Positions 13,973 through 64,000 of a stretch of DNA of 64,000 bases are shown here, piece by piece. Under the pieces are notes generated by a model. The model was not told the DNA's origin. It made no database searches and was given only the letters and a program-made list of their open reading frames with translations. Source of the stretch: Candidatus Yanofskybacteria bacterium RIFCSPLOWO2_01_FULL_42_49 (lineage in GTDB: Bacteria; Patescibacteriota; Minisyncoccia; 2-02-FULL-40-12; GWA2-44-9); contig MGKI01000014.1 of the NCBI GenBank assembly GCA_001795615.1, positions 69,380-133,379 on the forward strand. Reading direction: 5' to 3'. Numbering within the stretch: position 1 is the stretch's first letter; every line of letters begins with the position of its first letter. The position numbers and the translations under genes are program-made.

Positions 13973-13973
13973 C

Positions 13974-27096: not shown

Positions 27097-27102
27097 CCTT
27101 AT

Positions 27103-28758: not shown

Positions 28759-28790
28759 AAAAAAAATAAAAACCCTCTAATCTGAGGGTT
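28759..28790 (-). terminator. Rho-independent terminator of the radical SAM gene 28789-30369
   Basis: On the - strand, AACCCTCAGATTAGAGGGTT is followed by TTTATTTTTTTT. It overlaps the stop codon. Confidence 0.65.
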
Positions 28791-30369: not shown

Positions 30370-30440
30370 TTTTAAAGAACCCTCTTAAAAATAAGTACTT
30401 GGGTCAAAAATAGCAAAAAGAGCTCTAAATAACAATCCAC

Positions 30441-30465
30441 ATAAAAAGCCCTGATTATAGGGCTT
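30441..30465 (-). terminator. Rho-independent terminator of the radical SAM gene 30485-32614
   Basis: On the - strand, AAGCCCTATAATCAGGGCTT is followed by TTTATGTGG. Confidence 0.6.
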
Positions 30466-30484
30466 GTACGGCCGCCTGTTTAAA

Positions 30485-34514: not shown

Positions 34515-35484
34515 TCTCTAGATTTTTAGTTTCAGAAACTATATATACCGGGCGGCCTTTTATTTCGTTGAACATTTTATATAAGTACTCACCCATAATA
34601 CCAATGACCATAAGTTGAATACTGCCCAACGCCAGAACAACAATCGTTAAAGAAGAAAGACCCTCAATAAGATGTTCCGGATACAAGTATTTTTCTATAA
34701 CAACGGATAAGCCATAACCGATGCTCCCCAGAAAGATTACCAAACCTATCCAAAAAGAGATTCGGAGAGGAAAGGCGGAAAATGAGGTTACTCCGTTCAA
34801 AATAAAACTAAATAACCTTTTAACGGAGATTGGCTGGCCATATTTGCGGGCCCTTACTGCGTAAGGAACGTATTTTTTCTTAAAACCGACCCATTGAGCC
34901 AATCCTCTGAAAAATTTCTCTCTCTCGGGTAATTTTTTAATCACATCAACAACCCGTCTTTTATACAAAACAAAATCGCTGGCGTTTTTAAATTCAAGTC
35001 CTGTCATAGTGCTTAAAAATTTATAGATAGCCCTGCCCGCGACTTCCCTGAAAAAAGAATTTTGTTCATTGGTTATCCTCTCTCCGATAACAATATCGTG
35101 TCCTGCTTCGGCTTGTTTTATGAATTCTGAAATTACTTGTGGTGGATGCTGTAAATCGCTATCCATAGTTACCACCATTTCTCCGCTTGAAGCATCTATT
35201 CCGGCGCTTAAAGCCGCTTGATGCCTGAAATTCCTTGAAAAACGGATGATCTTGACCCTTGGGTCCTTGTCTGCGTATTCGTTCAAGATTTCCGAGGTTC
35301 TATCGCGAGAACAGTCGTCAACAAAAATTATCTCATAACTTTTACCGATAGAATCGCAAACAGAGTAAAGCTCCTTCATCAATTCCGGAAGGGACTTTTC
35401 TTCATTGAAAATAGGCAAAACTACCGATAAATAGATGGCCTTTGGTTGACTAATCATTTGTATAATTATACATAGCCAACCCAA
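34498..35484 (-). CDS. Polyprenyl-phosphate glycosyltransferase (GT2; ArnC/GtrB/FlmF2/DPM1-like) with C-terminal TM helices
   Basis: LSVVLPIFNEE, FVDDCSRDRT and MDSDLQHPP (DxD / QxxRW-region equivalents), plus two C-terminal hydrophobic helices. Confidence 0.8.
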   Translation of the reverse strand: MGWLCIIIQMISQPKAIYLSVVLPIFNEEKSLPELMKELYSVCDSIGKSYEIIFVDDCSRDRTSEILNEYADKDPRVKIIRFSRNFRHQAALSAGIDASSGEMVVTMDSDLQHPPQVISEFIKQAEAGHDIVIGERITNEQNSFFREVAGRAIYKFLSTMTGLEFKNASDFVLYKRRVVDVIKKLPEREKFFRGLAQWVGFKKKYVPYAVRARKYGQPISVKRLFSFILNGVTSFSAFPLRISFWIGLVIFLGSIGYGLSVVIEKYLYPEHLIEGLSSLTIVVLALGSIQLMVIGIMGEYLYKMFNEIKGRPVYIVSETKNLENDRTP

Positions 35485-35494
35485 GATTGTCTAG

Positions 35495-37192
35495 TCAGTT
35501 TATAGTCAGAGAACGGCAGTCAAAGATGTATGAATCTATATATTTATCAGTGAATTTTTTGTTCAGTTCGCATCTGGATATTAATTTCCAATACAAGCTG
35601 TTTTTGTCAATAGCCGGAAAATCAACTATCATATAGTACCCCCTGTGATAAGTGAGTCTTTGGCTGTAATCACGAGAAGGAGCTGTGTAAAATCTTCCTG
35701 TGTACTTATCTGCTATTTTTAAATAATAGACTCCCGCGTCATAATATGTAACAACATCGTTAATCTCTTCATCATTGACCACGCGCTCAACAGACGCTTT
35801 AGTAATATTGTTTACGCTACCATAAAAAGCGCCCATTAAATTTTCACTTGAAAGCAGGAGATTATAACCAACACCGAAAACAACAAAAAAGGCAATCGCT
35901 AATTTTTTCTTATTAAACAAAAGCCACAGAAAACCCACAGCCCATATCCACAAAACAAACTGCGCTGAAACATAAAATCCTATCGGCCCCGAACCTCCTG
36001 TCATAGGAATAAGAAAGTTAAAGTCCAGATCTTTGACTTTTTGCACATAGGCCTCCTTTGGGTTAAGGGGCACAATGTCGTGAGCGATAAAAAGAGTAAA
36101 GGCCAAAAGAACCGCAAAACCTAATATACTTAATAAAAGTCGTTTCTTGTCCAACCCTGAAAGCAATGAATAAATGACATGGCCGCTTATAATAACCGCC
36201 GGCGCTATTATGAACATAAAGTATCTCTCTATCGGAAGCCGGGCAAAGTCAAAAATTACAAGATAGAAAATAAAATTGAATAAAGTATAGATATACCAAA
36301 TACGATATTTTATGAAAAAATCTTTTTTTCCGCCGACGGAGACCCGGCTATGCACGGGTCCCTCTCCAGGCAAAGCGGATCCGCCTCCAGCAGAGAATAA
36401 TCCATACACCATCGGCAAAAATAAAAGCGGAGAGAACCAGATAAAAAACTTAACTAGGCGGAGAAGCAACTCAAAATAAGCTCTTGATGCAAAATCAAAT
36501 ATCTTAAAGTTGGTAGAATACTCTACAAATCTCGGATCGGTCTTTCCGTAAAATAAATAGAGCCCGGCAATAAAAACTCCTGAAATACCCAGGATCAGAC
36601 CCGCTCTTTTTATCTCCTGTGTAAATTTGCCCTTATCATACAAAGTCCACAGATACTCGATTGCCAACGCTCCGACAAAAATCACAAAACTCAACTTCGT
36701 TAACAAACCGGCAATTATCACCACGGCCAGCGGCAGAATAAATTTTTTATCGCCGTCCTTAACTGTTCTGATGTAAAAATAGTATGTTAAAAGAACAAAA
36801 AACGGCAAAACGGCGCCGTCAATGTCTATCATCAGGTTGGCGATAAGACCATAAACACTGATAACATAAAGACCCGATGAAAGATAAGCGATCTTTCTGT
36901 TATCGGTGATCTTTAGAGAAACCGCATAAATAAGAAGAAGATTTAAAATACCAAAAACAAAAGGTACTACCCTCAAGTTATCATAGCCAAACATCTTGCC
37001 GACCAGCGAAAGAGTACTCTGCATTATCGGCGGATGGGGAGAGTCAACTTCGCCGAATTCTGCCGTATATACTTGAGAAACCCACCTGTATTCATCCTGA
37101 TGATATAACTGGTCCAAGCCCAAAAATCTAGTGGCGATAAACAACAAAACCAACAGCCAAAGCCAGTAATTATTTTTTAGTATTACTGTCAT
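35495..37192 (-). CDS. GT-C fold polytopic membrane glycosyltransferase (ArnT/PMT/FlmK-like)
   Basis: 565 aa with more than 10 predicted TM helices. An acidic DE motif sits in the first extracytoplasmic loop (LYHQDEYRW), as in the GT39/GT83 families. Confidence 0.55.
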   Translation of the reverse strand: MTVILKNNYWLWLLVLLFIATRFLGLDQLYHQDEYRWVSQVYTAEFGEVDSPHPPIMQSTLSLVGKMFGYDNLRVVPFVFGILNLLLIYAVSLKITDNRKIAYLSSGLYVISVYGLIANLMIDIDGAVLPFFVLLTYYFYIRTVKDGDKKFILPLAVVIIAGLLTKLSFVIFVGALAIEYLWTLYDKGKFTQEIKRAGLILGISGVFIAGLYLFYGKTDPRFVEYSTNFKIFDFASRAYFELLLRLVKFFIWFSPLLFLPMVYGLFSAGGGSALPGEGPVHSRVSVGGKKDFFIKYRIWYIYTLFNFIFYLVIFDFARLPIERYFMFIIAPAVIISGHVIYSLLSGLDKKRLLLSILGFAVLLAFTLFIAHDIVPLNPKEAYVQKVKDLDFNFLIPMTGGSGPIGFYVSAQFVLWIWAVGFLWLLFNKKKLAIAFFVVFGVGYNLLLSSENLMGAFYGSVNNITKASVERVVNDEEINDVVTYYDAGVYYLKIADKYTGRFYTAPSRDYSQRLTYHRGYYMIVDFPAIDKNSLYWKLISRCELNKKFTDKYIDSYIFDCRSLTIN

Positions 37193-40572: not shown

Positions 40573-41514
40573 TTATTCGCCTGCCGACATCTTCTTTATC
40601 TTCTTTCTTGCAATATCTATGCCATAAGCAAAGAAGTCATATCTCCTGGGGCTTGTAAAATGTTTCATAACTGTGTTTTCACCGGGCCTACCTTTAATTA
40701 TATATGTGTCGACTGGAAAAAAATCAAAATTAACCTGAGATATTAATGACCCCCAACCGGACATACCCACAAGATAGTCTTTAACTTCTCTTTTTGTGTT
40801 TCTAAAATAATTTACGAACATATCCAGCGTAAATTTTTTTCTATTAATTAATATGAGTCCGGAGTTCATAAAATCAGCATGCTTTTCTATTAACTGATGT
40901 CTTTGCTCATATTCCTTACTAACCATTAAATCATAGACCCCCTGACGAGAAACCAGGGCATCAAATTGACTTTTTCCGTTAACAAAATTGATAATCTCAT
41001 CGGGCCTCTTGAAGAAAAGTATATCCGTATCGCATATCATTACTTTTTTAGCGCTACTTAACAAGAAGAGGTCAAAAAACTCCAATATTACCGCATGCCC
41101 ACCACCCCTATACTTTCTTATATCGTCCGGCAAGCCGGGATATTTTTCAATAAGCCGATCCGCCTCAACCTTGAATAAAACCTTCAAATTTCTAAACCTC
41201 TTCTCTAAAACAGAAGCTGATTTTTTATTAAATGACCCGTCGTCGTGGACAATAATATTAGGGCATAATTTAGAAAAATACAAAAAAGATTTCAATGCCC
41301 ACTCCAACATTCTAATATCACTTTTTTGACACAGAACATGGATTTCAAAACCAGGATCAGCGGAACATTCCTGTCCGAGCAACTTGGGCAGAAACAGATG
41401 ACTAAAGAGTTTATTCTTAAAATAGTTGAAATAATCTATGGCATGATATTTCTGACTAAACAACCTCCTTATAAAAAAGAGCTCTATCTTTATTTTTTTA
41501 AATATAGCTAACAT
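40573..41514 (-). CDS. Uncharacterised protein, possibly a GT-A-like nucleotide-sugar transferase
   Basis: 313 aa. The call rests on an IVHDDGS segment resembling a GT2 DxD region. No other family signature was recognised. Confidence 0.3.
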   Translation of the reverse strand: MLAIFKKIKIELFFIRRLFSQKYHAIDYFNYFKNKLFSHLFLPKLLGQECSADPGFEIHVLCQKSDIRMLEWALKSFLYFSKLCPNIIVHDDGSFNKKSASVLEKRFRNLKVLFKVEADRLIEKYPGLPDDIRKYRGGGHAVILEFFDLFLLSSAKKVMICDTDILFFKRPDEIINFVNGKSQFDALVSRQGVYDLMVSKEYEQRHQLIEKHADFMNSGLILINRKKFTLDMFVNYFRNTKREVKDYLVGMSGWGSLISQVNFDFFPVDTYIIKGRPGENTVMKHFTSPRRYDFFAYGIDIARKKIKKMSAGE

Positions 41515-51077: not shown

Positions 51078-52241
51078 TTAATCGTTAGTTAGTATCTTTA
51101 TTGTTTCCTCTACCATTCTATTCGAACTGAATCTGGCAACGGTGTCTTTGCCTGACTCCGTAAGTCCTTCTTTAAATTCAGGGTTTTGCCAAATTGTTTT
51201 AATCGCCTCCACCAGATTAAATTCGTCATTATATTTAACTAAAAAGCCGTTATCTCCTTGCGTTATTAACTCCCTGTTACCGCCCACCGCAGACGCAATC
51301 ACCGGTATGCCGCAGGTCATTGCTTCCAAAATCTGATGGGAAAAGCCCTCATAGCCGCTATTAAGAACAAACATATCTGCAGCCGCCAGATATGTGGCAA
51401 GTTCCTCTCTTGGTTTTTTTCCGGCCAGAAAAACTTTTTTGTCCAAATTCAAATTGTTAATCATCAAGTTCAGGGATTCCCGATCCGGACCATCACCGAT
51501 AATTACAAGGCGCGCAAATTGATTTAAATTCAGAAGTTGAGGCATTATTTTTATAAGCATCCTGAAACCTTTCCACGGAACCAGCCGACCGACCGAAAGA
51601 ATTATGTTACCATGAATGCCAATCTTGCTCCTTGCTTCTTCTTTTGACAAATCTGACGGCTTAAAATCAACGCCGTTATAAACGATTTTGATTTTGGTTT
51701 CCGGCACCCCCCAGCCCTTCACAATACCGTTTAAATATTTCGAGGGAACAATTACCAAATCCGATTTTTTACAAACCCAACCCTGTAATTTATACAAAAG
51801 GCCAATCCAACCCTTTTTCTTGGATTCCTGGAAATCATCAATAAGAAGCTTCACCTTACCATTCCCCACTCCAACTTCCCAGGCATAATCGCCAACGATC
51901 CTTACAATGAATTTTTTTCTGAGGATTTTAGAAACAACCAGGGACGGAAACCCCGCACTCCAGACATTCAGGGCAAGAATAATATCACTCTTTCGGGCTA
52001 GCCCCAGAAGCTTAATCCCAAAAATAAAATGTTTAATCCAAATCGGCCACTTTCCCCAGACACGAACAATCTTAAATTTGTATTTAGAATCGAAATTGCT
52101 AGTTCTAAATTTTCTTGAATAAGTTAACACGCCAACATTAAATCCCCTGCCATTTAAAGCACCGGCCATAAACCCGGCATAAGACGCCGGACCGCCTATG
52201 TCGGGAGGGAAAATTCCCGTTGTAATTAAAATTTTATTCAT
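51078..52241 (-). CDS. GT4-family glycosyltransferase
   Basis: EAMTCGIPVIASAVGGNRELI. Confidence 0.75.
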   Translation of the reverse strand: MNKILITTGIFPPDIGGPASYAGFMAGALNGRGFNVGVLTYSRKFRTSNFDSKYKFKIVRVWGKWPIWIKHFIFGIKLLGLARKSDIILALNVWSAGFPSLVVSKILRKKFIVRIVGDYAWEVGVGNGKVKLLIDDFQESKKKGWIGLLYKLQGWVCKKSDLVIVPSKYLNGIVKGWGVPETKIKIVYNGVDFKPSDLSKEEARSKIGIHGNIILSVGRLVPWKGFRMLIKIMPQLLNLNQFARLVIIGDGPDRESLNLMINNLNLDKKVFLAGKKPREELATYLAAADMFVLNSGYEGFSHQILEAMTCGIPVIASAVGGNRELITQGDNGFLVKYNDEFNLVEAIKTIWQNPEFKEGLTESGKDTVARFSSNRMVEETIKILTND

Positions 52242-53077
52242 TTTCGGATAAATAAATTGTATCTGATTATATGATAAATCGCCGCAATTCCATCCTTCCA
52301 GTTTATTTTCTTTCCTTCCTCATAAGTCCGACCCTCATAAGAAACAGGTACTTCAACTATTTTTAAATCCAATTTTCCAACCCAAGCGGTCAGCTCCGGA
52401 TCAATACCAAATCTTTTAGAATCAAGGCGGGGATAAATCTGGTTGATTGCCTCTCTGGTAAATACTTTATAGCAAGTATACATGTCTGTTAACCAAATAC
52501 CGCTTAAAAAATTAGACAGCCAATTTAATATCTGACTAACAATATAACCTTGCTTATAAACGATTTTATTCCCCAGCCTTGGATCAAGAAACCGCGAACC
52601 GTAAACGACATCAGCCTTGCCGTCCAAAATCGGTTTTATTAAAGTTGGATAATCTTGCGGATTGTATTCTAAATCAGCGTCCTGAATAAGCACAACATCT
52701 CCTGTCGCCTCCTGAAAGCCTTTTTTAACTGCCACCCCTTTGCCCATATTCTTATCTAAAAACAAAACCATGATCTCTTGTGAGAGGTTGTGTGGAGGGG
52801 CATCCTCCACACTTTTGGAAATGTGTTGTAGTATTTCCCGCGATCCGTCAGTTGAACAATCGTCCACCATTATTATTTCTTTATCCAATGATATTTCAAT
52901 TTTTCTTATTGCGGCCAAAATTGCCGGGATAGTCTTCCTTTCGTTAAATACGGGAATTATTATGCTTAACTTTTTGTGTGATTCACTGTTCATTGTTCGA
53001 AGCCTCCAGATATAATTCTCTAAATTTATCAGATATTTTATCCCAAGTATATTTCGCTTCCACCAGTTTACGACCAT
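52238..53077 (-). CDS. GT2 polyprenyl-phosphate sugar synthase-like (DPM1/Ppm1-like, soluble type)
   Basis: LSIIIPVFNERKTI, MVDDCSTDGSREIL and a later DxD block IQDADLEY. No C-terminal TM helices. Likely start is MNSESHKK at ~52993. Confidence 0.7.
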   Translation of the reverse strand: MVVNWWKRNILGIKYLINLENYIWRLRTMNSESHKKLSIIIPVFNERKTIPAILAAIRKIEISLDKEIIMVDDCSTDGSREILQHISKSVEDAPPHNLSQEIMVLFLDKNMGKGVAVKKGFQEATGDVVLIQDADLEYNPQDYPTLIKPILDGKADVVYGSRFLDPRLGNKIVYKQGYIVSQILNWLSNFLSGIWLTDMYTCYKVFTREAINQIYPRLDSKRFGIDPELTAWVGKLDLKIVEVPVSYEGRTYEEGKKINWKDGIAAIYHIIRYNLFIRK

Positions 53078-54143: not shown

Positions 54144-55407
54144 TCAAATCAATGCCCCAGAACACAATACTATAGACTCCAAACAAAAGGTTTTATTTGT
54201 GATAACTCAGTCCGAACTCGGAGGTGCTCAAAGGTTTTTGCGCACATTGGTTAATCGTTTAGACAAGAACCAATACAAGCTGCTCGTTGCCGCAGGACCG
54301 ATCTACACAGGACACAGGATACAGGACACAGAACACAAAAGTTACGATTTATTAGATCAACTAGAAACAGAGGGGCTTAAAACAGCCAGATTAAGACACC
54401 TTCACAGAGAAATAAGACCCCTTTCTGACTTAAGAGCCATTTTAGAACTAAGAAAAATAATAAAAGAATTCAAGCCAGACACGCTTTTCCTCTTAAGCTC
54501 CAAGGCCGGCTTCATTGGCTCTCTAGCCGCTCGAAATATCAAAATACCTGTCCGTCCGGCAGGCGAGTCGAAATATCGAAATATCGAGGTCGTCTATCGT
54601 ATCGGCGGCTGGACCTTCAACGACCCGTGGCCGGCATGGAAGAAAAAATTATGGGTATTTTTGGAAAGAATAAGCGCAAAATGGAAAGACGTGATAATCG
54701 TTAACAATAAGCACGACCTAGAACAAGCACACGAATTAAAAATAAAACCGAGAAAAGAAATAAAACTAATTCACAACGGTCTCGATGTTTATAAAATAGA
54801 TTTCCTGCCCAAAGAAGAAGCAAGGCTAAAATTATTCGAAAAAGCATCAAGACAATCCGGAAGAATATTCAACGCCGGAATAATCGTGGGCACTGTCGCA
54901 AATTTTTATCCGACTAAGGGCCTTGAATATCTCATTAGCGCGGCAGAACATTTCAAAAATAATGACGACATTACTTTCGTTGTTATTGGTGACGGAACAG
55001 AACGGTCCCATCTTGAACATTTAATCGCTGACAAGGGCCTTGATAAAAAAGTCCTCTTGTTGGGCCAGTTGCCTGATGCCTACCGGGTTATCCCGGCATT
55101 TGATATTTTCATCCTGTCTTCGGTAAAAGAAGGCTTTCCGTGGGCTGTAATTGAAGCCATGGCTGCGAAAGTGCCGGTTATCGCTACGAGAGTCGGAGCA
55201 ACACCGGAAATCATAGAAGATGATAAAAACGGCATGCTTGTAGAACCAGGCCGGCCAGAACAAATAGCCAAGAAGATACAAGAACTGGTGGCCAACGAAC
55301 ACCTAAGGCAGGAACTGGGCATACAAGCCCACCAAACGGTTTTGTTTAAATTTTCACTCGACAAGATGATAAAAGAAATCGAATCGGCAATGAGCAATAA
55401 TCAATAG
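54079..55407 (+). CDS. GT4-family glycosyltransferase
   Basis: IEAMAAKVPVIATRVGATPEII. Probable start is ATG 54124 or 54136. It diverges from 52983-54143 with almost no spacer. It contains a heptamer tract at 54306-54340. Confidence 0.75.
   Translation: MVSIKTLVFSSICAIMLTKMDTQINAPEHNTIDSKQKVLFVITQSELGGAQRFLRTLVNRLDKNQYKLLVAAGPIYTGHRIQDTEHKSYDLLDQLETEGLKTARLRHLHREIRPLSDLRAILELRKIIKEFKPDTLFLLSSKAGFIGSLAARNIKIPVRPAGESKYRNIEVVYRIGGWTFNDPWPAWKKKLWVFLERISAKWKDVIIVNNKHDLEQAHELKIKPRKEIKLIHNGLDVYKIDFLPKEEARLKLFEKASRQSGRIFNAGIIVGTVANFYPTKGLEYLISAAEHFKNNDDITFVVIGDGTERSHLEHLIADKGLDKKVLLLGQLPDAYRVIPAFDIFILSSVKEGFPWAVIEAMAAKVPVIATRVGATPEIIEDDKNGMLVEPGRPEQIAKKIQELVANEHLRQELGIQAHQTVLFKFSLDKMIKEIESAMSNNQ
54306..54340. 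repeat. Degenerate heptanucleotide tandem repeat (CACAGGA-like x5) in a GT4 coding sequence
   Basis: CACAGGA CACAGGA TACAGGA CACAGAA CACAAAA, encoding ...YTGHRIQDTEHK.... Confidence 0.75.
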
Positions 55408-55462
55408 AAAATCCGCCCCACAAGAGCGGATTTTCTATCTTTATGATTGTCCTGTTTCTTAA

Positions 55463-57724
55463 TTACAATTCTCTCCCCAAACTTCTTAAAAACATCCTGG
55501 CATCCGGTTCAAAAGACGGATCAACTTGAACCGCTTTGCGAGCCATAGCCACCGCGTCATCAATTCTTCCTAAATTGGCATATGCAGCGGCCAGTGAAGC
55601 ATAATGTTGAGGATCTCTCGGATTTACGGCAATAAGTCGTTCAAATGTTCGAGCTATATTAGGACGGTCATTTAATTCGACATAAACAGAAAGCATCCTT
55701 GAATATTCCTGTTCGCTCGGCATGTATCTGTTTTTAACCTCCAGAGACCTCTCCAGGTTCTTAATCCCGCTTTTATCGCCAGCCTGAAGTTTAGCCACCC
55801 CCAAATACCAATGAGATATTCCAGTATCAGGATTTAAGTCAACGGCTCTTTGGAAATATTCTATGGCCTTAACAAGATCTTTCTTGTTAAGATATGCTTG
55901 GGCTATTTCAAAATAAGTCCTGACAAAAGTTGGCGATAGTTCAAGAGCTTTAAGAGAATATTCAAGAGACTTATCGTTATATAATGACTCGGGATCATGC
56001 TGACCAAGCATAATATTTAACCTCGAACCGTATAAATAGGGCAGATAATCAATCGAGTTTTCTCTAATATTTTTGTCGATTTCTTCCAAAACATAAAGAT
56101 AGATCTGTCTGACCTTTTCTTCTTTCACGCTTGGGCCGCCCGCACCAACCAAGTATTGTGCAAGACGGTGTCTATAGTCATATTTACCAGGCACATCATA
56201 TAACAAGGATTCTTTATATTTATTAATAGCTCCATCAAAATCACCCTGCCAGCCCCTAACAATAGCTCTTGTGGTCGCATAGTTGGCTTTGGCTGGCAAA
56301 ATATTCGTTTTATATATCAACCATGGAATAAATATAACCAAAACTATCACAATAGTATTAAATAGGATTTTATTTGGTTTTCTAAGATTTTTAATTCGTT
56401 GCGTCTGCGCATCATTCGTATTATATCCACGCGCAAGCGCGGAAATAAGGCCCAAAATAGTAAAGAAAATAATAAAATTAGCCGAAGTATCGAAGATAAA
56501 AGAGTTATGAATTATATAGGCAACAACCAGCGGTATAAAACCGACCCCATAAATTACAAGTTCCGAATTTCTTAACCATCTGCGCAAATAAATAAACATC
56601 GCCGTGAAAATACCGAGATAAGACAGAAGGCCGGTCAGTCCCATTGTTACAAGAACCTCTACAAACATATTGTGAGCTCTGTCGAACAGTGTCTCCGCTC
56701 CCTGCCCGGCGTAAAATTTGGGGTTAAAGTATTTGGAAAACGGAATATTGAAATTCTCCGGCCCCCAACCGAGAAGAATAGTTTTAGGGCTGTCGGTCCA
56801 ACCCTTGAGTCCCGCTTCCCAGGCCCAAAAACGGGTTTCAGTTGTTTGTGATCTTAAGGACAGATCGGTTATCCTGCTCAAATATTTTGACTTTTCTATA
56901 AATTGGGAGTTCCCAAAAAGAAGCGAAAAAATAATAAAAAGAGCCGCAAAGCCAATTAAATAACTAAATGCCAATCGTCCAAAACGAGATTTCTTGTATA
57001 CTCCCCATAAAAACGCAAAAACCGTGATCCCGACCGCGTAGGCCAAAACAGACCCCCTGACTGCAGTCATTAAAGCGGCGATAGAAGTAACGGCAAAAGC
57101 AAACGCGTAGAATATTTTACGATTCTTGGTATTTTGGGAACTGAAAAATAGCGTAAGAGACAGAAATACCGCGAAAAGCTGGGAACCAGCAAATAAGGCC
57201 GCATTGCCGGTAGTACCGAATATTCTTGTCCTGTTACCGGACCCGACAAAAAACTCAATATCAGTTTTTTGTCCAAACCCATAAAATGCCGACAATACCC
57301 CGGCAACAATGGTAATGTCCAAAATTCTTTGCCAATGCTCCTTTTTTGTTAATACGGAGGTTAAGATTATATAAAATAGAAAATAGTGCCAGAATGTCCA
57401 AAGTCCGCCCATTCTTTCAAGTGTTCCCCAAAAACTAGGATATCTTAAAACACTGGTAGTGGTGGTTAAAGTAAATGCCGCGACAAAAAACAAAAACGCC
57501 CAGAATATCTTATCCCGGCGCGGTAAATAAGACCTGTCTTTCAATATCAGAATAAGATAAGCCGCTCCCAGAATTTCTATTAAACTCCTGAATACGACAA
57601 CTTTCCCGAAATGAAACGGGGAGATAAAATCCTTAAATATCACAAGCGGCACTAAAGCCGTCAGATATATACCAAAACGTAAAAATTTTATTAAACCTGA
57701 TTCTTTTTGATTGCTTCTCTCCAT
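55463..57724 (-). CDS. O-antigen ligase/Wzy_C-like polytopic membrane protein with C-terminal TPR repeats
   Basis: About 12 TM helices with a large external loop in the N-terminal ~450 aa. C-terminal TPR-like repeats follow (AQAYLNKKDLVKAIEYFQRAVDLNP...). Confidence 0.6.
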   Translation of the reverse strand: MERSNQKESGLIKFLRFGIYLTALVPLVIFKDFISPFHFGKVVVFRSLIEILGAAYLILILKDRSYLPRRDKIFWAFLFFVAAFTLTTTTSVLRYPSFWGTLERMGGLWTFWHYFLFYIILTSVLTKKEHWQRILDITIVAGVLSAFYGFGQKTDIEFFVGSGNRTRIFGTTGNAALFAGSQLFAVFLSLTLFFSSQNTKNRKIFYAFAFAVTSIAALMTAVRGSVLAYAVGITVFAFLWGVYKKSRFGRLAFSYLIGFAALFIIFSLLFGNSQFIEKSKYLSRITDLSLRSQTTETRFWAWEAGLKGWTDSPKTILLGWGPENFNIPFSKYFNPKFYAGQGAETLFDRAHNMFVEVLVTMGLTGLLSYLGIFTAMFIYLRRWLRNSELVIYGVGFIPLVVAYIIHNSFIFDTSANFIIFFTILGLISALARGYNTNDAQTQRIKNLRKPNKILFNTIVIVLVIFIPWLIYKTNILPAKANYATTRAIVRGWQGDFDGAINKYKESLLYDVPGKYDYRHRLAQYLVGAGGPSVKEEKVRQIYLYVLEEIDKNIRENSIDYLPYLYGSRLNIMLGQHDPESLYNDKSLEYSLKALELSPTFVRTYFEIAQAYLNKKDLVKAIEYFQRAVDLNPDTGISHWYLGVAKLQAGDKSGIKNLERSLEVKNRYMPSEQEYSRMLSVYVELNDRPNIARTFERLIAVNPRDPQHYASLAAAYANLGRIDDAVAMARKAVQVDPSFEPDARMFLRSLGREL

Positions 57725-57774: not shown

Positions 57775-59589
57775 CTAAAATTCCCCCAAAATAACCACCT
57801 CAGACCCCTCGAATGTTCTAATAAAATCCTCCATGCTTGTTTTTGGGTCTTTAACTTGCTCAAAATATCTGTACGCTGATTCTTTGTCTCCCTTATTAAA
57901 GTAGGCCCACCCTAAGGCAAATCTAAGCTCTTTCTGCTGAGGGTTATCGCCAAAATGTTTATGAATAAGCTCAATTGCCTCCTCCGGTTTTTCAAGGCTC
58001 ACTTTTGTCAAAGCTAAAAATAAAACTTCCGACCACCGCGGATAAATATCAACGGAATCAACTAAGACATTCTCAGCCGATTCAAAATATCCGTTTTCAT
58101 AATATAAAACTCCTAAACTTAAATAAGCCCTCAGGTAGTCAGCCCTTAACTCTATGGCTTTCTTCCACAATTCTTCCGACTTTTGGAGCTGACCTAATTT
58201 TTTGTAATTCTGTCCGGCAAGATTGAGAGCGGGAACATGTTCCGGGGCCAAATACAGTATCTTGTTTAATATCTCCTCTGCTTCCATGTACTTACCGGCT
58301 TTAAATTCCAAGTAGGCTTTGTTAGTCTGATTTACAATGCTATCAGGAGCCGCGGCATATGCGCTTTCGTATAGATTAGCGTCATTAAGCCAGTCTCGAT
58401 TCCTGTCTAGTATCAAGAACCCATAAAAAACCAAAATTATTGACACACATCCATATAAAACACGGGTATTTTTGACCCTAGGACCCAGCCACACAAAAAC
58501 AGCTCCAATCATAAAAGCAAGGCCAAGCGAGGGCATATAAAGCAACCGTTCCGCCATTATTGTGCCAGTTTTAAAAACCCAGTTGGAGATCACGAAATAA
58601 GAAGACAGGAAAATTATAATCCCGGATCGCATTAAAATATCTTTTCCCCTAAAGAGCAGCAGAACAACCAAACAGAATATAGCGATTCCCAGCATTGCTT
58701 CAAGCGAAGCAACGAGAGTTTTCACTGGTGGTATTTGGCCGAAAGAATAGTCGCTGGAAAGGTGAATCGGGAAAAAGGTCTTCACAAGATATAGATAAAA
58801 AACTTTAAACGATGTCCAAAGTCCGCTGAAAAAAGACGCAAATTTAATAGGATTGTAGACCGCCGTTGCGTCATTCTTCAAAAAATGTTCTCCCAAAGCT
58901 ATATAACGCAGGACGGCATAAAAAATAACAGATGGGATAAAATAATAAATATTTTTTACGGCTTTTTGGAAGCCAGGCTTCCAGCTGGAAGCCTGGCTTC
59001 CGGAACTAAATAATTCTAGGAACAAAAATATCGGCAAAAACGCTACGGCCATTTCCTTGCTCAATAAGCCAAGGAAGAACAAGGTAGAAGCAAAAATATA
59101 CCTTTGTTTAAGAGCAAGCAGCAGCGCTCCGATAACGAAAAGCAGAGAAAGAATCTCGGCCCTGCCTACTATTGATGTCACTGCTTCAGTATGGATCGGC
59201 AGAAACATAAAAAATAAAAAGCCGGCGAAGGCGGCTATTTTTGAAACGCTCAAACGATATAACAGAACAAACGCTAAAAAAGAAGTAAGGGCGTGAAGAA
59301 AAATATTGACAACATGAAAACCGACCGGAGAAGAGCCAAGTACAAAAGCGTTTAGAGAATAACTGGCAATAGTTAATGGCCTATAAAGCCCCGGGTGTGG
59401 CTGATAGGCGAAATAGGGGGTAATAAAAATCTTCCCAAACCCACCAAGCTGTCCGTCAATAAAAGGATTACCGACAATTACAATAGTATCGTCAAAAACA
59501 AAATCACCCCCTATCCCGTTGCCGAAAAGGACAAATGATAAAATAAGAGCCAAAACGGCAGCTAAAATTAGATCCTTAGTTCTGCCCAT
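57775..59589 (-). CDS. TMTC/PMT-like GT-C membrane glycosyltransferase with C-terminal TPR repeats, paralog A
   Basis: N-terminal GNGIGGDFVFDDTIVIVGNPFI (loop-1 acidic DD motif), ~11 TM helices, and a C-terminal TPR array (AYLEFKAGKYMEAEEILNKILYLAP...). Confidence 0.6.
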   Translation of the reverse strand: MGRTKDLILAAVLALILSFVLFGNGIGGDFVFDDTIVIVGNPFIDGQLGGFGKIFITPYFAYQPHPGLYRPLTIASYSLNAFVLGSSPVGFHVVNIFLHALTSFLAFVLLYRLSVSKIAAFAGFLFFMFLPIHTEAVTSIVGRAEILSLLFVIGALLLALKQRYIFASTLFFLGLLSKEMAVAFLPIFLFLELFSSGSQASSWKPGFQKAVKNIYYFIPSVIFYAVLRYIALGEHFLKNDATAVYNPIKFASFFSGLWTSFKVFYLYLVKTFFPIHLSSDYSFGQIPPVKTLVASLEAMLGIAIFCLVVLLLFRGKDILMRSGIIIFLSSYFVISNWVFKTGTIMAERLLYMPSLGLAFMIGAVFVWLGPRVKNTRVLYGCVSIILVFYGFLILDRNRDWLNDANLYESAYAAAPDSIVNQTNKAYLEFKAGKYMEAEEILNKILYLAPEHVPALNLAGQNYKKLGQLQKSEELWKKAIELRADYLRAYLSLGVLYYENGYFESAENVLVDSVDIYPRWSEVLFLALTKVSLEKPEEAIELIHKHFGDNPQQKELRFALGWAYFNKGDKESAYRYFEQVKDPKTSMEDFIRTFEGSEVVILGEF

Positions 59590-59592
59590 CTT

Positions 59593-60180
59593 TTAAAAAC
59601 TGATTCTTACTTCAGCTTGGCCGGAACAGTTGACTTCTTTTACTTTTAAGTCCCCCCCCATAAACTGGCCATAAGTAACCGAAGCAGTAAGCAAATATGT
59701 CTTTGAAACTGGTTTTTCCGGCAAACGAATAGTCAAATTTTCATATTGTCCGTCAGGGACGATTAGATTGGCAAATAGATTCGGCCCGATGATCAAACTG
59801 TCATTCGGGATGATACGCCAATTTATTAAACGGCCTTGACTGTCTACATTCTGCCAGGATATTTTAGTATTAGAGGAATATAATCTGGGTTCAGAGAATT
59901 CAGCTTCGCCACTTACTTGGCAAGTGGCCGGTGACTTTATGCCATTAGGCCCAATGAAGGGTTCCCCTGTCGTAGCTGTTGGTTTTATTGTCATAGCAGG
60001 TGTCAAGGTAGGGATAGGCGCTGAAGAAGAACTTTGAACAACGTTTGGTCCGGTTGTGGGTTCAGCTGTTTGTTCAATATACTCCGCCGGTTTCGCAAAG
60101 TAAACAACCGAAATAATTCCTAGCACAAGGACCGCTACACTCCCCCACAACATAAAATTTCTCTTATTTTCCATCTCCAA
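59593..60180 (-). CDS. Signal-anchored secreted protein with Ser/Thr/Pro-rich linker
   Basis: N-terminal TM (LWGSVAVLVLGIISVVYF), a linker SSSSAPIPTLTPAMTIKPTATTGEP, then a ~130 aa beta-rich domain with 2 Cys. It lies 3 nt from the paralog A GT-C gene. Confidence 0.45.
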   Translation of the reverse strand: MEMENKRNFMLWGSVAVLVLGIISVVYFAKPAEYIEQTAEPTTGPNVVQSSSSAPIPTLTPAMTIKPTATTGEPFIGPNGIKSPATCQVSGEAEFSEPRLYSSNTKISWQNVDSQGRLINWRIIPNDSLIIGPNLFANLIVPDGQYENLTIRLPEKPVSKTYLLTASVTYGQFMGGDLKVKEVNCSGQAEVRISF

Positions 60181-60216
60181 ATACTATCAAATATGACCAA
60201 TTAAATCAACTTCGGC

Positions 60217-62055
60217 TCAGATATCTATGTTAAATATTTTTGTACTCTTTAAGTTCCAAAAGAACGCATCTTCAGACAAAGCCGGATCCTTCAATCCCAA
60301 AAGCAGTTCTCTCGCCCTTAAATCATCGTCTAGCTTTAAATACGCTACACCGAGGATAAATCTTAATTCATATATTTTAGGTTTTATGCCGAATTTTTCT
60401 TCAATCAAACTTATGACTTCACGGTATTCTCCTAAACCAATCTTATTAAAGGACAGGAGAGTGGTCACATTTGGAGTATCGTACATTTCTTTTGCCTTAT
60501 GGAGTATTTCTTTACCAGATCCAAAGTCACCTCTTTTATAATATAATGCCCCCAAACTAAGATACGGATAGAGATAATCCGGTTGAGCTATGGTTGCTTT
60601 CCGCCACCATTCTTCGGCAATTTTATCTTCGCCTATTCTTTTATAAATTTGTCCGCCCAGGTGTAGCGTTGGGCTGTTTTTTGGTTCAATCTCTAGGGCC
60701 TTGTTTATTTTTTCCAACGCTTCTTCGTTTTTGCCCTCTCGAAAAAGTATACTTGCCACATTGGTTATATTTACAACACTATTAGGCGCTACTGCATAGG
60801 CGCTCTCAAAAAGATTCTTTTCATTAAGCCAATCTCTGTTCCGGTCAATAATCACATATCCATACCAAACAAATAAAGTTAAAAGTGGAAAATATAAAGT
60901 TAAAAGTGAAAGTTTTAAGTTAAAAATTTTAAACCTTGAGCTTTGATTTTCCCTCGACCTGAGCTCGGGACGAAGGTTAACTTTTAACTTCAAACTTTCA
61001 ACTCCAGCTGCTATCAGCATAACCAGCCCTAGTGATGGCATATACATCAGCCGTTCGGCCATTATCGTGCCGATTTTGACAAATAAGTTGGAAACGACTA
61101 GATAAGAAAATAGGAAAATCGTTGCTCCTAACCCAACCAAACTATTGTGTTTTGATATGGACAGATAACCAATGGCCACAAAAATGCCAATTCCCGCCAG
61201 CGCTTGCCACGAATCAAATAAATTGTTTACAGCAGTGATCTGGTTGTAGGAGTAATCAGATGAAAAATAGATCGGAAAAATGATCTTCTGAGCATAAAGA
61301 CAGGCGACCTTAAAGGCCGTCCATAAACCTGGCAGAATATCCATCGCCGCAATAGGATTAAAGAAGGAGTAGGTGTTAGTGTTGATAAAGTATTCAAAGC
61401 CCAACGCATTATACCGAAGCACCGCATAAACAGCCAACGACGGAATAAAATACACGATTTTTTTAAACAAACCCATGACCGATTCTTTTCTCTGCACAAA
61501 TTCAAAGAATAAAAATATCGGAATAAAGGCAATGCCGGTTTCTTTGCTCAACAAAGACAGAAAGAAAAAAACGGCAGCTGTCTTATAATAACCCTTCTTG
61601 ATTGATAAAAACGAGGCCAAGAAAAATAAGAACATCAAAAGTTCGCTCCTACCGGCAATCGAAGTCACTGCCTCAACATGAATAGGTAAAAATAAAAACA
61701 ACAACGAACTGACAATGGCCGTCGTTCTGTTTTTAAATCCTGACACGATTAAATAGATTAAAAATGAGGCGACGGCGTGAAGAAATATGTTAACCAAATG
61801 AAAACTTTGAGGTTGTCCGGGGGAAATACGCCAATTTAAAACATAACTGGCTATAGTTAGGGGACGATAAAGCCCTGATTGAAGCCGATCATAGTGATAA
61901 GGATGTAAAAAGGTCTTAAATACTCCAACAGAATCTTCCATTAGCGGATTGTCGGTAACTACCGAATGATCGTCAAACACAAAATCGCCATTAATACCGT
62001 TGCCGAAGAGAACAAGTGACAGAACAATAATAAGCGAGAAAATTAATTTATCCAT
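60217..62055 (-). CDS. TMTC/PMT-like GT-C membrane glycosyltransferase with C-terminal TPR repeats, paralog B
   Basis: GNGINGDFVFDDHSVVTDNPLM, ~11 TM helices and a C-terminal TPR array. It carries an in-frame ~22 aa insertion relative to paralog A, encoded by repeat copy B. Confidence 0.6.
   Translation of the reverse strand: MDKLIFSLIIVLSLVLFGNGINGDFVFDDHSVVTDNPLMEDSVGVFKTFLHPYHYDRLQSGLYRPLTIASYVLNWRISPGQPQSFHLVNIFLHAVASFLIYLIVSGFKNRTTAIVSSLLFLFLPIHVEAVTSIAGRSELLMFLFFLASFLSIKKGYYKTAAVFFFLSLLSKETGIAFIPIFLFFEFVQRKESVMGLFKKIVYFIPSLAVYAVLRYNALGFEYFINTNTYSFFNPIAAMDILPGLWTAFKVACLYAQKIIFPIYFSSDYSYNQITAVNNLFDSWQALAGIGIFVAIGYLSISKHNSLVGLGATIFLFSYLVVSNLFVKIGTIMAERLMYMPSLGLVMLIAAGVESLKLKVNLRPELRSRENQSSRFKIFNLKLSLLTLYFPLLTLFVWYGYVIIDRNRDWLNEKNLFESAYAVAPNSVVNITNVASILFREGKNEEALEKINKALEIEPKNSPTLHLGGQIYKRIGEDKIAEEWWRKATIAQPDYLYPYLSLGALYYKRGDFGSGKEILHKAKEMYDTPNVTTLLSFNKIGLGEYREVISLIEEKFGIKPKIYELRFILGVAYLKLDDDLRARELLLGLKDPALSEDAFFWNLKSTKIFNIDI
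60874..61005. repeat. Palindromic AAGTTAAAAG / ACTTTCAACT repeat element (copy B) located in-frame inside the GT-C gene
   Basis: AAAGTTAAAAGTGGAAAATATAAAGTTAAAAGTGAAAGTTTTAAGTTAAAAA ... GGTTAACTTTTAACTTCAAACTTTCAACTCC, with inverted-repeat arms around a GAGCTC-centred core. It is related to copy A at 8982-9090. Confidence 0.7.
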
Positions 62056-62078
62056 TTAAACAAAATACAAAAAAACAA

Positions 62079-62113
62079 ACTAAAATAAAAGGCTCATCGT
62101 GATAAGCCTTTTA
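62079..62113. terminator. Hairpin terminator downstream of - strand gene 62133-63374
   Basis: AAGGCT-CATCGTGATA-AGCCTT flanked by A-tract/T-tract on both sides. Confidence 0.45.
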
Positions 62114-62132
62114 TTATTCAAATTTTTAGTTT

Positions 62133-63374
62133 TTAGATCTTTTCCAAATAATCACCATGAACCCACCCTTCTTTGCCCTCAAATGTTATCTTGTGCCATA
62201 AACCACTTTTGCCCAAACTCGTTACTTTGTCGCCAGCATCAAGCTGTCCCAAAATTGAACCTGCGGTACTAGCCGATGATCTGACGTTAAGGAACCCAAC
62301 ACTAGAAACAATCTTGTACTGATTGGCTGTTGATACGGTAGTTCCAGAAGATGCAGTTCCAGAAGATGAGGTAGCTTTTCTTGTATAATCGGGTATTTGA
62401 TTTACGGAAGTATAATCAGATCCCTTTGGGTACCAATTAAACTCTTTAGTATTTATACAGAAAACCTTTTTAAAGAAATTGGGATCGTCGGCAACAGCTT
62501 GCGCTCCGGTAGTGTTAACCCAGTGAAGTTTCCCTGTATCTTCGCCGGTGGTTTCCACACCATAAACTTTTACATCATTAGTTTCGCAATTTCTGAAAAG
62601 ACCAGAGGTTACGAACACATCCCTCGTCGTAGATGTAGCGCTTTTAATCTTGGAAAATCCGCCAAGATGGCCATAGAATCCAAATATCGCAGGATTTAAG
62701 AATAACCTTTTATAACCATGCGGGTTAACTATATAAACATCGGGGTCACTTGAACCGGCGGCACTAATGACATCACCGTCTTTTAAGCTTACGGCCGCCA
62801 AGCTGACGAACCCTTGTGAGGCCGGGGTTGGCTTGCTTGTTGAAACAGATGTGGGCGACACAGTCGGGGTCGGCGTCACTGAAACCGCCGGACTCACTGT
62901 CGGAGTTGGAGTCGGAGTTGGAGTTGCCGTAGTCGTGGTCGTGGTTGTAGTTGTGGTCGTTCCGCCTCCACCACCACCTCCACCACCACTATTTCCTGCG
63001 GTACCGCAAGCATTCGAGCTGGGTGTTATTATTACCGTTTTTGTAGAACTAGGAGCTATCGTCAATTCCGACTTATCGCTGAAACATTCGTATTCAAAAG
63101 CGCTGTCATTGGTCAACAATTTCCTATCAGACGATCGAAGCTTAAATGTCTGACCAGAGGTAATCTCAATGGTTATGGTGGTATTGGTAGTTATTATCGA
63201 ATTTACCACGGAACCGTCTACTATCGTCATGTTTCCCACATCAAGAGCAACAGTTGTGTCTCCAGTAGAAGTGGCGGTTGTAGCATTGGTTTTGTTTACT
63301 CCGACCAATAGCAGTCCTGCCATTAAAACAATAACGAGTAACGGCAGAAAAAAGTTAGTTTTTAATAATTTCAT
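62133..63374 (-). CDS. Secreted protein with Gly9-Thr11-(Thr-Pro)n linker and C-terminal SH3b-like domain
   Basis: Signal peptide MKLLKTNFFLPLLVIVLMAGLLLVG, then the linker GGGGGGGGGTTTTTTTTTTTATPTPTPTPTVSPAVSVTPTPTVSPTSVSTSKPTP. The C-terminus ...GFLNVRSSASTAGSILGQLDAGDKVTSLGKSGLWHKITFEGKEGWVHGDYL is SH3_3-like. Confidence 0.6.
   Translation of the reverse strand: MKLLKTNFFLPLLVIVLMAGLLLVGVNKTNATTATSTGDTTVALDVGNMTIVDGSVVNSIITTNTTITIEITSGQTFKLRSSDRKLLTNDSAFEYECFSDKSELTIAPSSTKTVIITPSSNACGTAGNSGGGGGGGGGTTTTTTTTTTTATPTPTPTPTVSPAVSVTPTPTVSPTSVSTSKPTPASQGFVSLAAVSLKDGDVISAAGSSDPDVYIVNPHGYKRLFLNPAIFGFYGHLGGFSKIKSATSTTRDVFVTSGLFRNCETNDVKVYGVETTGEDTGKLHWVNTTGAQAVADDPNFFKKVFCINTKEFNWYPKGSDYTSVNQIPDYTRKATSSSGTASSGTTVSTANQYKIVSSVGFLNVRSSASTAGSILGQLDAGDKVTSLGKSGLWHKITFEGKEGWVHGDYLEKI
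62860..63000. repeat. Low-complexity tandem repeats in DNA encoding the Thr/Pro linker and poly-Gly
   Basis: GTCGGAGTTGGAGTCGGAGTTGGAGTTGCC, GTCGTGGTCGTGGTTGTAGTTGTGGTCGTT and CCGCCTCCACCACCACCTCCACCACC on the + strand. Confidence 0.8.
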
Positions 63375-63394: not shown

Positions 63395-63802
63395 TTATTT
63401 TTGTTGCTGAATACTCTGAATCGTTTTGACAACTTGAGAGTCAAGCCTCATATTTTCCCAAAATAGAACTTGATCTTGGTTTACTATCATTTCGTCCTTA
63501 GGGCCATGAGGCTCGCCTACGCCAAGCTTAACAAGTTGGCCAGCGCCACTTTCATTTATCTTAACATAATAAACATCGGATAAGATCAAATAATCTGAAC
63601 TGATATTCTTCAAGCGTCCAAAGTATATCTGGTCATTTGTTAAGAACACTGCTTGGTATGTATCCGAATCAATAAATTTACTTCTATCGTAACTGTCATA
63701 CTTTAACCAATTGGTTAGAAAAGATGATCCAATAACACCGACAACAAATCCGACTACAACCAAACCGACAGTGACAATTGGAACATACTTAATCTTAGGC
63801 AT
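63395..63802 (-). CDS. Small signal-anchored protein of unknown function
   Basis: 135 aa. N-terminal TM helix VPIVTVGLVVVGFVVGVIGSSFL, then a soluble beta-rich domain. Confidence 0.4.
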   Translation of the reverse strand: MPKIKYVPIVTVGLVVVGFVVGVIGSSFLTNWLKYDSYDRSKFIDSDTYQAVFLTNDQIYFGRLKNISSDYLILSDVYYVKINESGAGQLVKLGVGEPHGPKDEMIVNQDQVLFWENMRLDSQVVKTIQSIQQQK

Positions 63803-63820: not shown

Positions 63821-64000
63821 TTAATGGCATCGAACAGTACTGAGGGTCGGCGTGGTAGAACCTTGATTAAAGCGCATATATATCCATGCTCCTGTTGAAG
63901 ATTTCAATTGAAAACAAGTGCCTAGAGTCGCAGTATTCCCGCCGCCGAAGTAAAAACTAGCCGTACCCGTACCAGGACCAACAAACTGCGCAGTATAACC
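63821..64000 (-). CDS. 3' end of a - strand ORF running off the window (partial; Gly/Thr-rich secreted-like C-terminus)
   Basis: Open frame ending at stop TAA (63821-63823 on +). The translation reads ...GYTAQFVGPGTGTASFYFGGGNTATLGTCFQLKSSTGAWIYMRFNQGSTTPTLSTVRCH. Confidence 0.3.
   Translation of the reverse strand, partial: GYTAQFVGPGTGTASFYFGGGNTATLGTCFQLKSSTGAWIYMRFNQGSTTPTLSTVRCH

Follow-up and report, generated by a model that had tools for sequence, protein, structure and literature searches.

The window analysed here is a 64,000-nucleotide (nt) stretch of contig MGKI01000014.1 from the metagenome-assembled genome of an uncultured groundwater bacterium, Candidatus Yanofskybacteria bacterium RIFCSPLOWO2_01_FULL_42_49. 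Near its end it carries two paralogous genes, here designated A (57775-59589) and B (60217-62055), for membrane enzymes of 604 and 612 amino acids (aa) that are almost certainly bacterial relatives of the animal TMTC glycosyltransferases and that may glycosylate exported envelope proteins. Both genes lie on the minus strand in a compact cluster, which in the direction of transcription consists of the 3' end of a gene for a Thr/Ser-rich secreted protein (63821-64000), the genes for a 135-aa signal-anchored protein (63395-63802) and a 413-aa secreted SH3b protein (62133-63374), gene B, the gene for a 195-aa partner protein (59593-60180), gene A, and a gene for a 753-aa Wzy_C membrane protein with C-terminal tetratricopeptide repeats (TPRs; 55463-57724). 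A preliminary description of the locus had proposed a self-contained set of enzymes, donor synthase and substrates for the O-glycosylation of protein linkers, and the open reading frames (ORFs) that it named were all found where it had placed them, on the minus strand.

Genes B, the 195-aa partner, A and Wzy_C follow each other at distances of 36, 3 and 50 nt, the stop codon of the partner gene being separated from the start of gene A by the 3 nt. In a pattern scan, intergenic terminator-like hairpins were detected only after the SH3b gene (62084-62115, minus strand, a 14-bp stem with a T-rich tail, between this gene and gene B) and after the Wzy_C gene (55403-55439, minus strand, a 17-bp stem, between convergent genes), and no such site lies between the four genes. 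This distribution suggests that the four genes form one transcription unit with the Wzy_C gene in the last position. Promoter scans gave 27 sites, which is no better than the 21.5 ± 4.2 sites in shuffled controls.

The two enzymes are 44% identical over their full length, and both contain the sequence GDFVFDD, the two acidic residues of which are encoded at 59488-59493 in A and at 61969-61974 in B. In A, a catalytic domain with 11 transmembrane (TM) helices (58390-59589) is followed by about six TPRs (57817-58383), and the AlphaFold (AF2) model likewise shows a GT-C glycosyltransferase fold of 11 TM helices and then 12 TPR helices. The fold and the acidic residue in the first external loop, the two hallmarks of the GT-C superfamily, are thus both present. 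The paired, GDFVFDD-containing polytopic proteins with C-terminal TPRs were recognized correctly at the outset, but the repeat region is not the long array that had been announced, since it spans about 190 aa and roughly six repeats. When the helices of the model are taken as TM segments, the loops on the side of the N terminus hold 11 Lys/Arg in 39 residues, compared to 10 in 149 residues for the opposite side, and a Lys/Arg-rich insert of about 30 aa in B falls in the predicted cytoplasmic loop between TM10 and TM11. Because of this concentration of positive charges and the inside position of the insert, the N terminus is predicted to be cytoplasmic and both the DD loop and the TPRs to be extracytoplasmic, as in TMTCs and in the pilin glycosyltransferase TfpW. 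The topology prediction that had been recommended as a check, made from the model helices and the positive-inside counts, therefore places both elements on the outer side.

Domain scans alone were not decisive for the family assignment. Apart from TPRs, Pfam and NCBIfam returned only sub-threshold matches, i.e., PMT_2 on B (22.8 bits compared to a gathering score of 26.1; E 1e-4) and TMTC_DUF1736 (PF08409) on A (16.5 bits compared to 27), and the Pfam scan found no TMTC_DUF1736 match in B. The model searches for PMT_2 and TMTC that had been suggested beforehand hence did find both families, but on A and B below the gathering scores. Among 36 relatives, DUF1736 was matched by 15 (E < 0.01, best 5e-8) and PMT_2 by 9. 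Sequence searches of the PDB with A and B matched TPRs only, and no PDB sequence was matched by a profile of the membrane domain. The decisive comparison drew on an alignment of the N-terminal domains of TMTCs that was published with rows for ArnT and Pmt1 (Eisenhaber et al. 2021, PMC7801869, supplement); its rows were transcribed by hand, with errors that could only lower the TMTC scores. The BLASTP alignments of A and B with TMTC1-4 of human and Drosophila run from end to end (22-29% identity over 370-450 aa, approximately 60-128 bits), e.g., that of B with human TMTC3 (27.5% over 396 aa, 128 bits). The profile of the bacterial family (A2) scored 138-200 bits against eight TMTCs, compared to -0.6 bits for ArnT and -3.0 bits for Pmt1, the latter two being partial sequences in the alignment. 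Because BLASTP and the profile match TMTC1-4 and the profile matches neither ArnT nor Pmt1, the sequences assign A and B with very high confidence to the TMTC family (CAZy GT105; PMC10214176) and not to GT39 or GT83. Whether the proteins group with PMT/TMTC or with ArnT had been set in advance as a test, and they group with TMTC. An identity as ArnT-like lipid glycosyltransferases (GT83) is ruled out by the ArnT score, and an identity as PMT/POMT (GT39) is ruled out by the Pmt1 score and the lack of any PMT (PF02366) or MIR match, so that of the initial label "TMTC/PMT-like" the first half stands and the second does not.

Published TMTC models attribute catalysis and the binding of metal, phosphate and mannose to seven motifs, the conservation of which was judged against the human TMTC motifs and across the 36 relatives. 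Six of the seven are recognizable in A and B and are invariant or nearly so in the relatives. The DD of motif M1 aligns with that of TMTCs, with D33 being invariant and D34 at least 90% conserved. M2 retains YRP(L) at residues 69-72 (59374-59385 in A, 61858-61869 in B; R70 and P71 invariant), but its SHKS part, which is modelled as a mannose contact in TMTCs, is replaced by (P/S)GL. Motifs M3 (G142-R143-x-E145, with D changed to E; GRAE at 59155-59166 in A and GRSE at 61642-61653 in B), M4 (K178-E179; (S)KE at 59053-59061 and 61540-61548), M5 (D280-Y281, with W changed to Y; SSDYS at 58744-58758 and 61249-61263) and M7 (E347-R348-x-x-Y351; AERLLY at 58537-58554 and AERLMY at 61042-61059) are invariant or nearly invariant in the same aligned columns. 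Catalytic-site motifs of the TMTC type are thus conserved in A and B. The PxxP of M6 in TM9 is not kept, the corresponding residues being SYFVISN here versus PFIPASN in TMTCs, with the Asn alone in common. As SHKS is replaced and PxxP is absent, the donor sugar need not be mannose. The hexose donor of the preliminary description is likewise a candidate.

The protein encoded between the two enzymes consists of a two-Cys immunoglobulin (Ig)-like beta-sandwich (59596-59958), a disordered Ser/Thr/Pro-rich linker (59968-60090) and a TM anchor (60097-60162), all on the minus strand, and contains SSSSAPIPTLTPAMTIKPTATTGEP at 59959-60033. The start chosen by gene callers gives 186 or 193 aa instead of 195, and its 73 homologs include none with a name or a Pfam domain; many of these homologs are on contigs of the same lengths as contigs with TMTC-like matches. 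For comparison, loci of relatives were numbered L001 to L012, with L005 being the public scaffold of this genome, and L013 to L092 are 80 reference loci with 3-kb flanks. The 195-aa gene accompanies TMTC-like genes in a lineage-specific manner: its family occurs in 14 of the 80 reference loci, all from Patescibacteria, and lies there on the same strand as and beside the TMTC-like genes. In the orthologs, the ectodomain is far more conserved than the linker and has 41 invariant positions; the linker keeps its Ser/Thr/Pro composition throughout, while its sequence drifts. The partner is a candidate acceptor or accessory subunit. TMTC1-4 add single mannoses to conserved Ser/Thr residues on beta-strands B and G of the Ig-like domains of cadherins, and disordered mucin-like regions are modified by POMT1/2 instead (PMC11292533). 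Because the characterized TMTCs act on the beta-strands of such domains, the Ig-like domain of the partner would be no weaker a candidate acceptor than its linker. The proposal that linkers in particular are glycosylated finds no support in this specificity and, given a partner that has both elements, is one of two possible readings.

The SH3b protein starts with a signal peptide and an N-terminal domain, which are followed by the Gly9-Thr11-(TP)n linker (62817-62987), a central domain (approximately 62421-62789), a Ser/Thr linker (62328-62375) and a C-terminal SH3b domain (62136-62318; SH3_3 of Pfam, E 3.7e-16). Both the secreted SH3b protein and the signal-anchored protein with a Ser/Thr/Pro linker are hence present as first described, and they contain the two 30-aa stretches that are richest in Ser/Thr/Pro among the 54 ORFs of the window that were examined (25/30 and 17/30, next 13/30). 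The DNA of the Gly9-Thr11-(TP)n linker uses mixed codons and has imperfect periodicities of 3, 6 and 12 nt without a pure triplet repeat, and the tandem-repeat scan revealed no clean hypermutable repeat in the Gly/Thr run. Orthologs, which are syntenic in L001, L009 and L012, keep the composition of this linker, first Gly-rich and then Thr/Pro-rich, but not its sequence.

No Pfam model covers the central domain of the SH3b protein (DGDV.SAAGS.DPDVYIVN..GYKRLFLNPAIF.FYGHL...), which shares 72-77% identity with the N terminus of secreted Thr/Ser/Gly-rich proteins of about 1,200 aa that adjoin the TMTC-like clusters of relatives (L009 718-4275; L010 1721-5470; L011 1106-4741; L003 3537-7142), and is thus far more conserved than the enzymes (40-46% identical). 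The last 59 codons of another secreted protein lie at the window edge, which cuts its gene (63821-64000, minus strand); their translation matches a 319-aa Thr/Ser/Gly/Ala-rich repeat protein in L005. After its signal peptide this protein continues with AASTIGTNMSTTGT..., repeated TTFEVQGTASASY units and a Cys...Cys end, and its composition is extremely rich in Thr, Ser, Gly and Ala. It was found at L005 7276-8235 (319 aa), L001 6537-7628 (363 aa), L009 11882-12694 (270 aa) and in L012 (371 aa), always upstream of the 135-aa and SH3b genes, and it may be a surface-fibre protein and a possible acceptor. The 135-aa protein has no family match in Pfam or NCBIfam and is conserved in sequence and in its position between the Thr/Ser-rich and SH3b genes in at least four genomes, including L001, L009 and L012.

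On L005, the cluster extends past the window edge, where genes follow for a third TMTC-like paralog, which is divergent and scores 123 bits to the family profile, for PMT_2 and GSDH-like proteins and for a 719-aa protein that matches TPRs faintly. The synteny of the cluster is kept in six further genomes of the Yanofskybacteria type, in which the enzymes are just 40-64% identical. The recurring order is the ~1,200-aa secreted protein, the ~200-aa partner, two or three TMTC-like genes, PMT_2, the Thr/Ser-rich protein, the 135-aa protein, the SH3b protein, GSDH, Wzy_C-TPR and a GT4/GT2/GT4 block, and the neighbourhood of surface proteins around A and B is thus conserved in relatives. The GSDH/TrAA12-like beta-propeller, a member of the soluble glucose/sorbosone dehydrogenase family, is constant in the clusters of relatives and lies here just outside the window (L005 3892-5202; L009 14487-15797; L010 9811-11124; L012 13946-15220). 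TMTC-like relatives occur well beyond the Patescibacteria in Acidobacteriota, Binatia, Verrucomicrobiota, Myxococcales, Planctomycetota, Ignavibacteria, Clostridia and others, and two strict peptide patterns alone recovered 244 of them. Tandem TMTC-like copies (at least two within 3 kb) were present in 37 of the 80 reference loci. A DPM1-like GT2 gene is sandwiched between TMTC-like copies in a Solibacteraceae genome (L044 2872-6925), but pairing of the two gene types as a general rule was rejected, as only 6 of the 80 loci have such a GT2 within 3 kb of a TMTC-like gene.

Two genes of the window may provide a lipid-linked donor. The DPM1-like GT2 without TM helices (52238-53077, minus strand) probably starts at 52993, as chosen by gene callers (251 aa). 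It matches Glycos_transf_2 of Pfam (E 1e-32), contains a DAD motif and has no hydrophobic segment; its best PDB relatives are DPMS (1.6e-15), ArnC (9e-15) and GtrB (5e-9), and the NCBIfam models AglJ, ArnC, PgfS and PpgS match far below their cut-offs. The gene sits in the conserved GT4/GT2/GT4 block, in which the orthologs of relatives are 50-63% identical. It is a candidate polyprenyl-phosphate sugar synthase but, being the ortholog of a GT2 embedded in a conserved GT4 block, it may serve the pathway of that block instead. The other candidate is a 328-aa GT2 of the PgfS/ArnC/GtrB type (34498-35484, minus strand) with a hydrophobic C terminus of TM helices, which matches the NCBIfam models PgfS (236 bits, profile positions 3-306 of 308, cut-off 500) and ArnC (179 bits, cut-off 529). 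These matches support the type of enzyme but, since the scores are below the curated cut-offs, not equivalog membership. By its sequence, this GT2 is the stronger candidate for an undecaprenyl-phosphate (Und-P) sugar synthase. The preliminary choice of the DPM1-like GT2 as donor synthase is thus consistent with its PDB and NCBIfam kin, but is weakened by its place in the GT4 block and by the better candidate. Next to the latter lies the gene for a 565-aa GT-C of the PMT_2 family without TPRs (35495-37192, minus strand; PMT_2 E 1.3e-8, above gathering), which is not matched by the TMTC-like family profile. Together with a YdjC-like gene (33738-34514), the two form a separate module for lipid-phosphate-sugar transfer (33738-37192, minus strand), a classic pairing of a lipid-phosphate sugar synthase and a GT-C. 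No flippase was identified for the proposed pathway. With the flippase missing, a third paralog and more GT-C genes beyond the window and a stronger GT2 elsewhere, the set is not self-contained as had been claimed.

The Wzy_C-TPR protein, which had been described as an O-antigen-ligase-like TPR protein upstream of the enzymes, does combine a Wzy_C domain (PF04932, 56.6 bits compared to a cut-off of 31.7; E 3.4e-15, residues 208-370) with TPRs (residues 580-745), but its gene is located downstream with respect to transcription. NCBIfam matches at the subfamily level are far below the cut-offs, and the gene is conserved beside the cluster in L009, L010 and L012. Members of the Wzy_C superfamily ligate or polymerize glycans linked to undecaprenyl pyrophosphate, with transfer to Ser/Thr of proteins in the PglL type. 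The domain is common to WaaL, PglL, Wzy and the protein at 55463-57724; the C-terminal TPR array sets the latter apart.

The rest of the window is given over to glycan biosynthesis and comprises many GT4s, RmlD-like and epimerase genes, methyltransferases, two B12-binding radical-SAM enzymes and a nonulosonic-acid pathway (NeuB twice, CMP-transferase, DegT, WbuX-like). This pathway, of the pseudaminic/legionaminic type, is encoded at 7836-15173 (plus strand) by a DegT aminotransferase, a fusion of NeuB and CMP-transferase, DUF218, NeuB, a HisH/HisF-like pair and a WbuX amidotransferase (325 bits). Sugars of this type are typically found on flagellins, pilins or surface glycans. The radical-SAM enzymes (526 and 709 aa) are encoded by adjacent genes at 28789-32614 (minus strand) and may methylate or otherwise modify sugars. 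Three ORFs of 523, 465 and 313 aa at 25525-28500 and 40573-41514 (both minus strand) have no convincing match in Pfam or NCBIfam, with one weak match for that of 465 aa (E 9e-4, 18.7 bits).

Among known systems, metazoan TMTC1-4 share with A and B the homology of the whole 11-TM catalytic domain with the motifs DD, YRPL, GRxE/D, KE, D(W/Y) and ERxxY, non-cytoplasmic C-terminal TPRs, several paralogs per genome and an Ig-like candidate client, comparable to the EC domains of cadherins. In contrast to TMTC1-4, A and B would reside in the bacterial cytoplasmic membrane instead of the endoplasmic reticulum (ER) and use bacterial polyprenyl phosphate instead of dolichyl phosphate; they have only about six TPRs, lack SHKS and PxxP and match DUF1736 below the threshold. 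TfpW of Pseudomonas aeruginosa is a pilin O-arabinofuranosyltransferase that transfers and polymerizes D-arabinofuranose and has ArnT as its best structural template. It resembles A and B by its architecture, i.e., a cytoplasmic N terminus, 11 TM helices, a periplasmic DDx and C-terminal periplasmic TPRs. TfpW modifies Ser/Thr of a protein and is encoded beside its substrate gene pilA, but no pilin gene adjoins A or B. In streptococci, it is experimentally established that GtrB or PgfS together with GT-Cs of the YfhO type act on disordered Ser/Thr-rich regions (PMC12041528). The GtrB/PgtC2 and Pgf systems share with the proposed pathway the route from a GT2 via an Und-P-linked sugar and a GT-C to extracytoplasmic Ser/Thr-rich regions of membrane-anchored or wall proteins, and Pgf (PgfS, PgfM1/M2) also combines two GT-C paralogs and substrate genes in one cluster; a full-length PgfS-like GT2 is present in the window. 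Unlike A and B, which are members of the TMTC family, the streptococcal GT-Cs are of the YfhO family and lack a TPR domain. PMT/POMT enzymes (GT39; yeast Pmt1-7 and actinobacterial Pmt) are similar in the GT-C fold and the acidic motif in loop 1 and would be so in the lipid-phosphate-mannose donor, the Ser/Thr acceptors and dimers of paralogs, but have a MIR domain, which is absent from A and B, and DE instead of DD. ArnT (GT83), which lacks TPRs and acts on a lipid, shows no detectable sequence relationship.

The mechanism to which the cluster points would comprise four steps; beyond family, motifs, fold, predicted topology and synteny, we infer catalytic activity, the donor sugar and the identity and site of the acceptor. 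A GT2, with those at 34498-35484 and 52238-52993 as candidates, would use a nucleotide sugar to load polyprenyl phosphate with a monosaccharide on the cytoplasmic side, and the lipid-linked sugar would be flipped across the membrane. The 11-TM domain would then transfer the sugar at the outer face, with hydroxyls of Ser/Thr in exported envelope proteins as acceptors. If A works as in the TMTC models, D33, the first Asp of DD, E179 and D280 as the metal site, and K178 and R348 as phosphate contacts would serve this step. The client protein would be chosen by the roughly six extracytoplasmic TPRs, and the cluster itself would encode the most likely clients, first the 195-aa protein with its linker and/or Ig-like domain and then the SH3b and Thr/Ser-rich secreted proteins.

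We consider O-glycosylation of exported envelope proteins by A and B the most probable function, with a probability of roughly 0.58. Characterized TMTCs and the architecturally similar TfpW both act on proteins, and the precedents of O-glycosylation dependent on lipid-phosphate sugars in streptococci and in TfpW of P. aeruginosa make the general idea plausible. Several observations weigh against it. The two genes are embedded in an island of over 60 kb for glycan biosynthesis that includes many GT4s, the nonulosonic-acid pathway, Wzy_C and another GT-C, and lipids or polysaccharides are the acceptors of most characterized bacterial GT-Cs. Transcription of the SH3b gene appears to be separate from that of gene B, Ser/Thr/Pro linkers are common in exported proteins, and DPM1-like GT2 genes are rare beside TMTC-like genes. 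The M6 PxxP and the modelled mannose contact SHKS are not conserved, and no study of any bacterial TMTC member was found in the literature. The location in the glycan island makes a non-protein acceptor plausible, such as a cell-wall glycopolymer, a lipoglycan or a lipid-linked oligosaccharide made by the surrounding GT4/GT2/Wzy_C genes, in which case the TPRs would dock the TMTC-fold enzymes to the machinery of polysaccharide assembly. We regard this as possible but rather doubtful, because the specific sequence kinship is with TMTCs, which have protein acceptors, and not with ArnT, the tight pairing conserved in the lineage involves a small anchored protein with an Ig-like domain and not a gene for glycan synthesis, and the cluster has conserved, exported proteins rich in Ser/Thr. 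Far less probable still, and indeed hardly to be expected, is a role as TPR scaffolds or chaperones without catalytic activity, in which the GT-C fold has been retained. TMTC proteins were first described as TPR adaptors or chaperone-like proteins of the ER, which would fit. Where PMC7801869 touches on the matter, transferase activity of purified TMTCs is given as not demonstrated as of 2021. In inactive proteins, invariance of the catalytic, metal-binding and phosphate-binding residue classes in all 36 diverged relatives would be unexpected.

Compatible with protein O-glycosylation, the 195-aa partner may be an accessory subunit or substrate adaptor, i.e., a trans-acting counterpart of the MIR domain of PMTs or of TfpX. 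The linker proteins would then merely be co-located, and the clients, such as pilins or S-layer-like proteins, would be encoded elsewhere. The strong conservation of the ectodomain compared to the linker speaks for such a role, as does the 3-nt spacing to gene A, which suggests translational coupling and stoichiometric co-production; moreover, the partner follows the ~1,200-aa secreted Thr/Ser-rich protein, a good potential client, in relatives. The case of TfpW and pilA, with the substrate gene beside the GT-C, and the composition of the linker, maintained in all orthologs despite free sequence drift, point in the other direction, and we judge this role unlikely. Of similarly low probability is a more specific form of protein O-glycosylation, in which A and B, guided by the TPRs, would modify conserved Ser/Thr of a folded beta-sandwich of the Ig-like type with single sugars, as animal TMTCs do. 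An example site would be the invariant strand T165-x-S167-x-T169 of the 195-aa ectodomain, in addition to related surface proteins. If this were true, the O-mannosylation of metazoan cadherins would descend from a prokaryotic module of an enzyme plus a dedicated client, A and B, as tandem paralogs, may function as a heterodimer, and the locus would be a minimal, genetically linked system for the TMTC-type recognition of folded domains.

Animal TMTCs mannosylate cadherins, and mutations in them lead to brain malformation and hearing loss; to our knowledge, TMTC enzymes have been known only from animals. Prokaryotic TMTC homologs are mentioned in the literature in passing, and protein glycosylation in Patescibacteria (Candidate Phyla Radiation [CPR]) was called unexplored in a study of late 2024. 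We classify A and B as new members, from bacteria, of an established enzyme family, working in a type of pathway that is also known; one new detail is the lineage-specific Ig-like partner. Should the acceptor be a glycan, the locus would be an ordinary envelope-polysaccharide island. Transferase activity and substrate recognition of TMTCs are poorly defined, and bacterial homologs beside candidate clients and donor synthases would offer a simple reconstitution system that could show what the TPR domain reads. CPR bacteria are ultrasmall episymbionts whose contact with the host depends on their surface, and a conserved cluster of surface proteins and glycosylation genes is therefore a reasonable entry point.

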